Below, piece by piece: positions 12,199-12,228 of a stretch of 33,964 bases of DNA. Made by a program: the position numbers and the translations under genes. This DNA is from Escherichia coli. Its GTDB lineage: Bacteria; Pseudomonadota; Gammaproteobacteria; Enterobacterales; Enterobacteriaceae. Below the pieces are notes generated by a model, which ran no database searches, was not told where the DNA came from, and saw nothing but the letters and a program-made list of their open reading frames with translations. Position 1 is the stretch's first letter, and every line of letters starts with the position of its first letter. The stretch lies in NCBI RefSeq assembly GCF_003334385.1, contig NZ_QOWN01000048.1, one strand, 5' to 3'.

Positions 12199-12228
12199 GC
12201 AAAGCTTTGTAAGCCGATGCAAAGCTTT
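12199..12228. promoter_or_regulatory. Two perfect 10-bp palindromes CAAAGCTTTG spaced 20 bp centre-to-centre (putative repressor operator pair)
   Basis: Both copies read directly (12199-12208 and 12219-12228), each within an identical 14-mer ATGCAAAGCTTTGT, located about 80 bp inside the prophage end. Confidence 0.3.

Follow-up and report, generated by a model that had tools for sequence, protein, structure and literature searches.

The window, by which we mean the whole stretch of 33,964 nucleotides that was analysed, consists of the Escherichia coli genes ynfE-ynfF-ynfG' joined to a Stx-type prophage that is inserted in ynfG. The open reading frames at 7118–9544 and 9602–12028 are ynfE and ynfF, and ynfG, the gene of the 4Fe-4S subunit, starts from 12039. 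Its 5' fragment (12039–12123, plus strand), annotated in RefSeq as a partial '4Fe-4S binding protein', is interrupted by the prophage: identity to K-12 ynfG (L004, 991 onward) runs to ...GATTTTAAAG, and the sequences diverge afterwards. Of 5,426 complete E. coli genomes searched by megablast, 55 have this ynfG/phage junction. The phage side of the window is matched, also by megablast, by PhiR5_2 (99.8%), the Shigella phage 75/02 Stx (94%) and POCJ13 (86%), and both 75/02 Stx and POCJ13 are known to integrate in ynfG (PMC5447701). The att core was placed by eye by comparing K-12 ynfG, the window and the circular 75/02 Stx record, whose two ends join as CAACAAC-TTTAAAG-TTGGTTACG (TTGGTTACG begins with TTGGTTA). 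The core shared by the three sequences is therefore TTTAAAG, and this crossover identity, common to attB (ynfG) and attP, occupies 12117–12123. An identity of 7 bp is the usual overlap length of tyrosine integrases. The four ynfG-type sequences (the window, PhiR5_2, 75/02 Stx and POCJ13) are identical from the core to 12318. In the three phages other than the window, int lies at the opposite end of the phage, about 50 bp from the core, so that the arm seen in the window is the one remote from int, in lambda terms the P arm (attR).

This arm contains two identical 14-mers, ATGCAAAGCTTTGT, on the plus strand at 12197–12210 and 12217–12230, with a period of exactly 20 bp (12180–12240 reads tcccaacattgaaaaacATGCAAAGCTTTGTaagccgATGCAAAGCTTTGTgtgtctcac). 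Each of them holds the perfect 10-bp palindrome CAAAGCTTTG, of which the window has 2 exact copies, at 12200–12209 and 12220–12229. Exact searching of the window thus confirms what the preliminary description had claimed, namely identical 14-mers with embedded 10-bp palindromes at a spacing of 20 bp; the coordinates given there, 12199–12228, designate the right site but run one base low. The placement of the pair between the att junction and the antirepressor cassettes, whose first open reading frame starts at 12568, was likewise correct. A third palindrome, GATTTGACAAATC, is present at 12317–12329, some 90–100 bp downstream of the second one. Palindromy by itself carries little weight here, as the window has 32 perfect 10-bp palindromes and composition-preserving shuffles have 32 ± 5; the exact direct repeat is what matters. 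The twin 14-mer is the sole exact direct repeat of at least 14 bp within 40 bp in the window, and no such repeat arose in 60 shuffles, which establishes the twin repeat as real and non-random. A 44-aa open reading frame (12217–12351, plus strand) that starts at the ATG of the second 14-mer was rejected as probably spurious: no Shine-Dalgarno sequence was seen by eye, the frame is unannotated in RefSeq, and the cassette sequence in which it begins varies freely among relatives.

The palindrome GATTTGACAAATC is placed exactly where homology to non-ynfG Stx phages starts, and the -35 hexamer of a promoter-like site, TTGACA-18-CATACT (12320–12349), falls inside it. Together with a T-run hairpin at about 12367–12405, this site may give rise to a short transcript or to an antA leader. 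Two full-length matches to the Rfam family sRNA-Xcc1 (RF02221) are found on the plus strand at 12439–12527 and 12979–13064, with 69 and 73 bits against a gathering score of 53, and one of them stands directly upstream of each antirepressor (AntA/KilAC) open reading frame. The cis-element that travels with the antirepressor cassettes is the sRNA-Xcc1 motif rather than the palindromes. Between the antirepressor genes and the late genes, open reading frames of 408 and 214 aa (13931–15786, plus strand) correspond, by the PhiR5_2 annotation, to IbrA/IbrB ('co-activators of prophage gene expression'). Farther downstream, a 2,792-aa open reading frame on the minus strand (16550–24928) matches a giant hypothetical protein of PhiR5_2. 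Its identity of 92–93%, compared with 95–98% in the flanks, and the unaligned gaps at 19335–19865 and 22226–22322 suggest that the gene itself varies in a mosaic fashion.

Neither int nor xis is part of the window; both genes were read from PhiR5_2, 75/02 Stx and POCJ13, the arms of which are identical to that of the window. Int (387 aa) is 72% identical to the enzyme of SfII, 70% to that of the P22-like phage UAB_Phi20, 68% to that of APSE-2, 56% to that of Eho59 and 52% to that of HK446. Xis is encoded by a 123-aa open reading frame that overlaps the start of int by about 145 nt (L001, 1070–1441, minus strand). The protein matches 'excisionase' in PHROG (2907, phrog_2907; 1e-43) and HTH_17 in Pfam (3e-8) and has 72–74% identity to the Xis proteins of P22 and SfII; a sequence search for Xis relatives in the PDB found none. 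Judged by these identities, Int and Xis of the ynfG-type phages are P22-family proteins. The xis gene has no annotation in the PhiR5_2, 75/02 Stx and POCJ13 records, and the C-terminal ~35 residues of Xis occur in two versions among homologues (…GTPRTRSRAGSELR… vs …GTPVSHCRTAKDL…).

The region 12160–12250 of the window shares homology with the P22 attachment site, namely with its P arm, and P22-like phages carry a homologue of the arm downstream of int. The sequence of this arm in genuine P22 (BK000583) is CTGCGCTCACACGTCCCAtcttcgaaagacATGCAAAGCCTTGCaaaccgATGCAAAGATTTGTatGTCCCAtttttGTCCCA, with CTGCGCTCACACGTCCCA...ATGCAAAGCCTTGCAAACCGATGCAAAGATTTGT...GTCCCAtttttGTCCCA at 80–135 bp from the annotated attP core; the twin motif is located at 21187–21220 of that record and the homologue of the cassette described below at 21185–21232. 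Table 1 of PMC4111918 lists P22 attP as experimentally defined, about 260 bp long and equipped with IHF sites, and the P22 Xis as a protein of 116 aa. The two P arms share the box GCGCTCACACGTCCCA, a 48-bp cassette with twin ATGCAAAG units and a distal GTCCCA doublet, all at the same distances from the int stop, and the Int and Xis proteins that act with them are 70–74% identical. They differ in the core, which is derived from the thrW tRNA gene in P22 and is a 7-bp match to the protein-coding ynfG in the ynfG phage; in the sites themselves, which are imperfect in P22 (CAAAGCCTTG, CAAAGATTTG) but exact copies and perfect palindromes in the window; and in the neighbouring cargo, gtrABC in P22 and antirepressor genes in the ynfG phage. 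The P22 P arm is said, from the work of Smith-Mungo, Chan and Landy in 1994 and of Mattis, Gumport and Gardner in 2008, to include arm-type Int sites, an IHF site and a Xis-binding region. Almost certainly, the twin-palindrome segment is a conserved part of a P22-family P arm, of the type used by heterobivalent tyrosine integrases, and it lies here within the attR of a ynfG-integrated prophage.

Arm-type sites were assigned by an unbiased count of hexamers in each attP. GTCCCA is the most repeated attP hexamer and lies on one strand throughout. Its positions in P22, counted from the int stop, are -50 and -39 (inside the int 3' end), +115, +169 and +180, a layout shared by the ynfG phage except that GTCTCA occupies +169. 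HK446 and Eho59, whose Int N-terminal domains are 52–54% identical, carry GGCACA and TGACAC, respectively, at the GTCCCA positions. Because the top hexamer keeps fixed places on both arms and changes with Int, it can be assigned to the arm-type Int sites. The core-proximal site of the window comprises the conserved box GCGCTCACAC followed by GTCCCA (12169–12184, plus strand, with the hexamer at 12179–12184) and is assigned from the hexamer repeat and from its position. The distal site is a double one, GTCTCA-n5-GTCCCA with an 11-bp period (12233–12249, plus strand, with the hexamers at 12233–12238 and 12244–12249), and is recognized by a pattern in relatives: when viral contigs were scanned for GCGCTCACACGTCCCA, 90 distinct P arms were obtained, and GTCYCN-n5-RTCYCA follows the cassette in 83 of them. 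This distal doublet mirrors the P' arm doublet GTCCCAAATTTGTCCCAC within the int 3' end. On the side of the core, the sequence AATCAATTAGATA at 12143–12155 (plus strand) is one mismatch away from the IHF consensus WATCAANNNNTTR, and a similar CAA-N4-TTA/ATA box appears at the same position in the consensus of the relatives. From this resemblance we infer that 12143–12155 is the IHF (H) site of the P arm.

The segment between the core-proximal and the distal arm-type sites is an accessory cassette, a putative Xis array (12185–12232, plus strand; its fifth unit overlaps the distal arm site by 2 bp and ends at 12234). Counted up to the distal doublet, the spacer is exactly 48 bp long in 83 of the 90 distinct P arms. 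Among 24 representatives with less than 85% identity, it is built from four head-to-tail copies of the unit nnATGnAAAG in a strict 10-bp register, with A at a frequency of 0.58–1.0 at unit positions 7–9 and absent at position 4. The feature conserved across the family is therefore the array of 10-bp units, neither the palindromes nor the 20-bp pair. In the window the five units read ACATTGAAAA / ACATGCAAAG / CTTTGTAAGC / CGATGCAAAG / CTTTGTGTGT, of which 2 and 4 are exact, 1 and 3 degenerate; the first 14-mer corresponds to unit 2 and the start of unit 3, and the second to unit 4 and the start of unit 5. The palindromes arise because CAAAG at the end of one unit abuts CTTTG at the start of the next, and on this reading of the repeat structure the perfect palindromes are a by-product of the unit junctions. 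The twin 14-mers are accordingly described here as what they probably are, the two best-matching units of a P-arm accessory cassette and candidate excisionase sites.

The cassettes fall into four families. Family A has twin TGCAAAG sites and includes the window, P22 and SfII; in family A' the outer units form an inverted pair; family B has units of the GATGGAAAG/AGACAGAAAC type without palindromes; and family C has units of the GTTAC type. A relic family-A cassette, CACAAAGTCTTGCAATCCAGTGCAAAGCTTTGTG, lies beyond the P arm of HK446 (L015), the phage with the arm-type motif GGCACA, at +222 to +275 from the int stop. In another locus, L171, an int/P' arm like that of HK446 is joined at the thrW core to a P arm of the SfII type. 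This locus was considered as a natural swap of Int and arm, but is better read as a HK446-like prophage beside a relic SfII-type attR at thrW and is uninformative in this respect. The relic cassette of HK446 and L171 probably reflect tandem or relic prophages at thrW.

The architecture of the cassette corresponds to that of known excisionase targets, since recombination directionality factors bind head-to-tail repeats that are one helical turn apart (PMC7498355). The same review states, citing Mattis 2008, that P22 Xis binds attP cooperatively and bends it. By its position, and according to such second-hand citations, the P22 homologue of the cassette is inferred to be the footprinted Xis site. 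Covariation between cassette and protein was then considered. The search for related loci with an alignment of Int returned mostly prophage ends cut at the int or attL junctions, which left few P arms with a matching Xis; six further Xis/P-arm pairs were obtained by matching on contig or genome. Cassettes of families A and B pair with a Xis that carries ISRPTATNWI[RK][TS]GRLQATRK. A' cassettes pair with a change of Q to T or A in the RLQATRK helix in three of three cases, and C cassettes with the divergent helix-turn-helix IDKDTLTQWCRSGRIAYTKK in two of two, both counts coming from few independent pairs. This pairing is consistent with Xis being the reader of the cassette. The specificity of Xis leaves the split between A and B unexplained, because the two occur with an essentially identical Xis DNA-binding region, and the dyad symmetry of A/A' cassettes, which is kept through compensatory changes, is not predicted by a purely head-to-tail array of monomers. 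Taken together, the position, the architecture, the P22 homology and the partial covariation make Xis the most likely ligand of the cassette.

The arrangement can also be compared with that of lambda, whose Xis sites are 13-bp repeats 7 bp apart. In both phages the accessory-protein array is located on the arm away from int, with an Int arm-type site beside it, and consists of helically phased direct repeats, and the two strong sites 20 bp apart around a weak middle site that are found in lambda have a counterpart in the strengths predicted for the units of the window. The lambda array, X1-X1.5-X2 of attR, is covered by a filament of Xis (PMC7498355). Differences from lambda are found in the sites and in the protein, neither of which has sequence similarity to its lambda counterpart (72 aa for lambda Xis, 123 aa here), and in the layout, as the array of the window has arm-type sites at either end, extends over four to five turns and has no evident Fis site.

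The following scheme can be proposed for the function of the arm. Upon induction, the winged-helix Xis (123 aa, HTH_17) would assemble cooperatively into a short filament on the units, binding strongly at 2 and 4 and weakly at 1 and 3. The protein would bend the arm and contact Int at the flanking GTCCCA sites, and, together with IHF at the H site, this would enable Int to bridge the arm and the core. Such bridging would stimulate the excisive attR x attL reaction and disfavour re-integration.

The preliminary description had read the twin sites differently, as a tandem operator for a dimeric helix-turn-helix repressor of the prophage that would control the antirepressor genes or transcription directed outward. 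The dyad symmetry of each site and the 20-bp spacing, which places both on one face of the helix, are in line with this proposal, and transcriptional regulation is a second function of certain excisionases, 186 Apl and P2 Cox among them (PMC7498355). However, the motif and the antirepressor genes do not share their distribution: Stx1a-converting and Sakai-type phages, which integrate elsewhere, possess the antirepressor region from 12319 onward without the motif, whereas the motif is kept in P22 and SfII, where gtr genes replace the ant genes, and in many phages with the same Int/Xis family and unrelated neighbours. The further copies of the 14-mer that had been looked for near repressor genes are also missing. 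Searches of the window and of the 61.5-kb PhiR5_2, the cI-cro region included, returned no 14-mer or palindrome copy of note with up to 3 mismatches, and the cI-cro region of PhiR5_2 has no site with two mismatches or fewer. The mosaic boundary at 12319, the retention of the motif in P22 and SfII and the lack of any other copy imply that the motif belongs to the integration module. Moreover, there is no promoter-like site in 12185–12234, the nearest one starting at 12320 in a different mosaic module; the T-run hairpin recognized by eye and a sRNA-Xcc1 motif intervene between the twin motif and antA; and relatives conserve the 10-bp units rather than the palindromes. Palindromic sites beside an antirepressor gene are known from the immI operators of P22 (Mnt/Arc), but the site in the window is accompanied by neither an arc- or mnt-like gene nor a promoter, and its motif does not travel with ant genes. 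Control of the antirepressors through an operator is thus not supported and is largely refuted, and we regard it as extremely improbable. What survives of the proposal is the presence of phased tandem candidate sites for a helix-turn-helix protein, Xis being of the HTH_17 type, beside the att junction, while the regulation by repressor and antirepressor does not. The outcome named there as a refutation, a motif that is only part of the att core, comes close to the result: the motif is part of the att site and lies in the arm rather than in the core. A different possibility is that the 14-mers act without any contact to Xis, as arm-type sites of Int, as IHF or Fis sites, or as curved DNA with phased A-tracts. 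Phased AAA(G) tracts every 10 bp would indeed curve DNA without a protein, and the 8-mer ATGCAAAG is found once more in the P' arm of a ynfG-type phage (L001, 60–67). This additional copy is not conserved in P22, SfII and other relatives and was dropped as a chance occurrence; the element that is repeated on both arms and covaries with Int is GTCCCA and not the 14-mer motif; and the motif matches, by eye, neither the IHF nor the Fis consensus. C-type cassettes, which lack A-tracts, occupy the same 48-bp slot, and this argues for a protein that reads the sequence. Such a role of the 14-mers is very improbable, and the reading of the cassette as a Xis array is preferred to both.

Another reading, which may apply alongside the Xis array, concerns RNA. 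As the units are near-palindromic, units 2–5 can fold into a 17-bp stem, and a hairpin of this kind could take part in the expression of int as a terminator, as a stabilizer of the 3' end or as an RNase III target that confers retroregulation, in the manner of lambda tI/sib. The stem is downstream of int on the same strand only in intact attP, and integration separates it from int. The hairpin predicted for the window has an energy of -22.7 kcal/mol and a z-score of -4.8, with none of 200 shuffles folding as well, and each of the 11 A/A' representatives is likewise predicted to form a hairpin. Across 27 distinct A/A' sequences, 89.5% of the cells pair and four pairs are changed on both sides; the resulting covariation score was reached by none of 500 shuffles, a control that ignores relatedness. 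The homologous spot in the GenBank record of SfII is labelled 'putative rho-independent terminator', a terminator scan flags the site of the twin palindromes, and the geometry matches that of lambda sib as it is generally known. On the other hand, the 13 B/C representatives, which have the same arm architecture and, at least in family B, essentially the same Xis, show no consistent hairpin. A conserved U tract does not follow the stem on the int strand; the tail of the stem is the variable spacer of the arm-type doublet (CTCACTTTTG, CCCAAATCTG or CCCGAATCCG), and many relatives have CCCAAATCTG or CCCGAATCCG. The double changes derive from roughly three lineages, and a symmetric change in two half-sites of one protein would look alike. 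The predicted hairpin resembles lambda tI/sib in being stable, in lying beyond att on the int transcript and in being split from int by integration, and differs from it in its location inside the P arm, in the lack of a conserved U tract and in its absence from the sister cassette families. A role of the stem as an RNA hairpin in int expression is therefore rated as unlikely; an additional function of the sib type is conceivable at about that same low level and is unneeded to explain the element. Still more doubtful is the specific form in which the candidate Xis cassette of the A/A' phages, among them the ynfG phage and P22, doubles as a 17–19-bp RNA hairpin at the 3' end of the int transcript that integration takes away from int. 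Were it true, a retroregulator similar to sib/tI would reside inside the P arm itself, and a single stretch of 40 bp would be recognized by Xis as DNA and, once transcribed, by the termination or RNase III machinery as RNA.

Other observations concern the same segment as RNA. A search of Rfam at the motif returned nothing real; the sub-threshold match to mir-19 (26 bits against a gathering score of 50) merely reflects the hairpin. On the minus strand (12195–12234), the hairpin is directly followed by TTTTTC, the complement of the A-tract of unit 1, and in this form comes closer to an intrinsic terminator than on the plus strand. Inspection by eye of the stretch from the motif to about 15,875 revealed no minus-strand gene that would need a terminator.

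With the cassette regarded as a probable Xis array in a P22-family P arm, the value of the analysis is in the first place one of annotation, as it gives the exact left boundary and the anatomy of a ynfG Stx-type prophage: the core, an IHF-like site, three arm-type Int sites and the cassette. The signature derived from 83 arms (GTCCCA, 48 bp of four 10-bp units and the GTCYCA doublet) could delimit such prophages automatically. No new regulatory system is revealed, and the only matter of broader interest is why the cassette stays dyad-symmetric in one sub-family. For the biology of these phages, the analysis shows that a medically relevant group uses an Int/Xis module of the P22 family that has been retargeted from a tRNA gene to a protein-coding gene.
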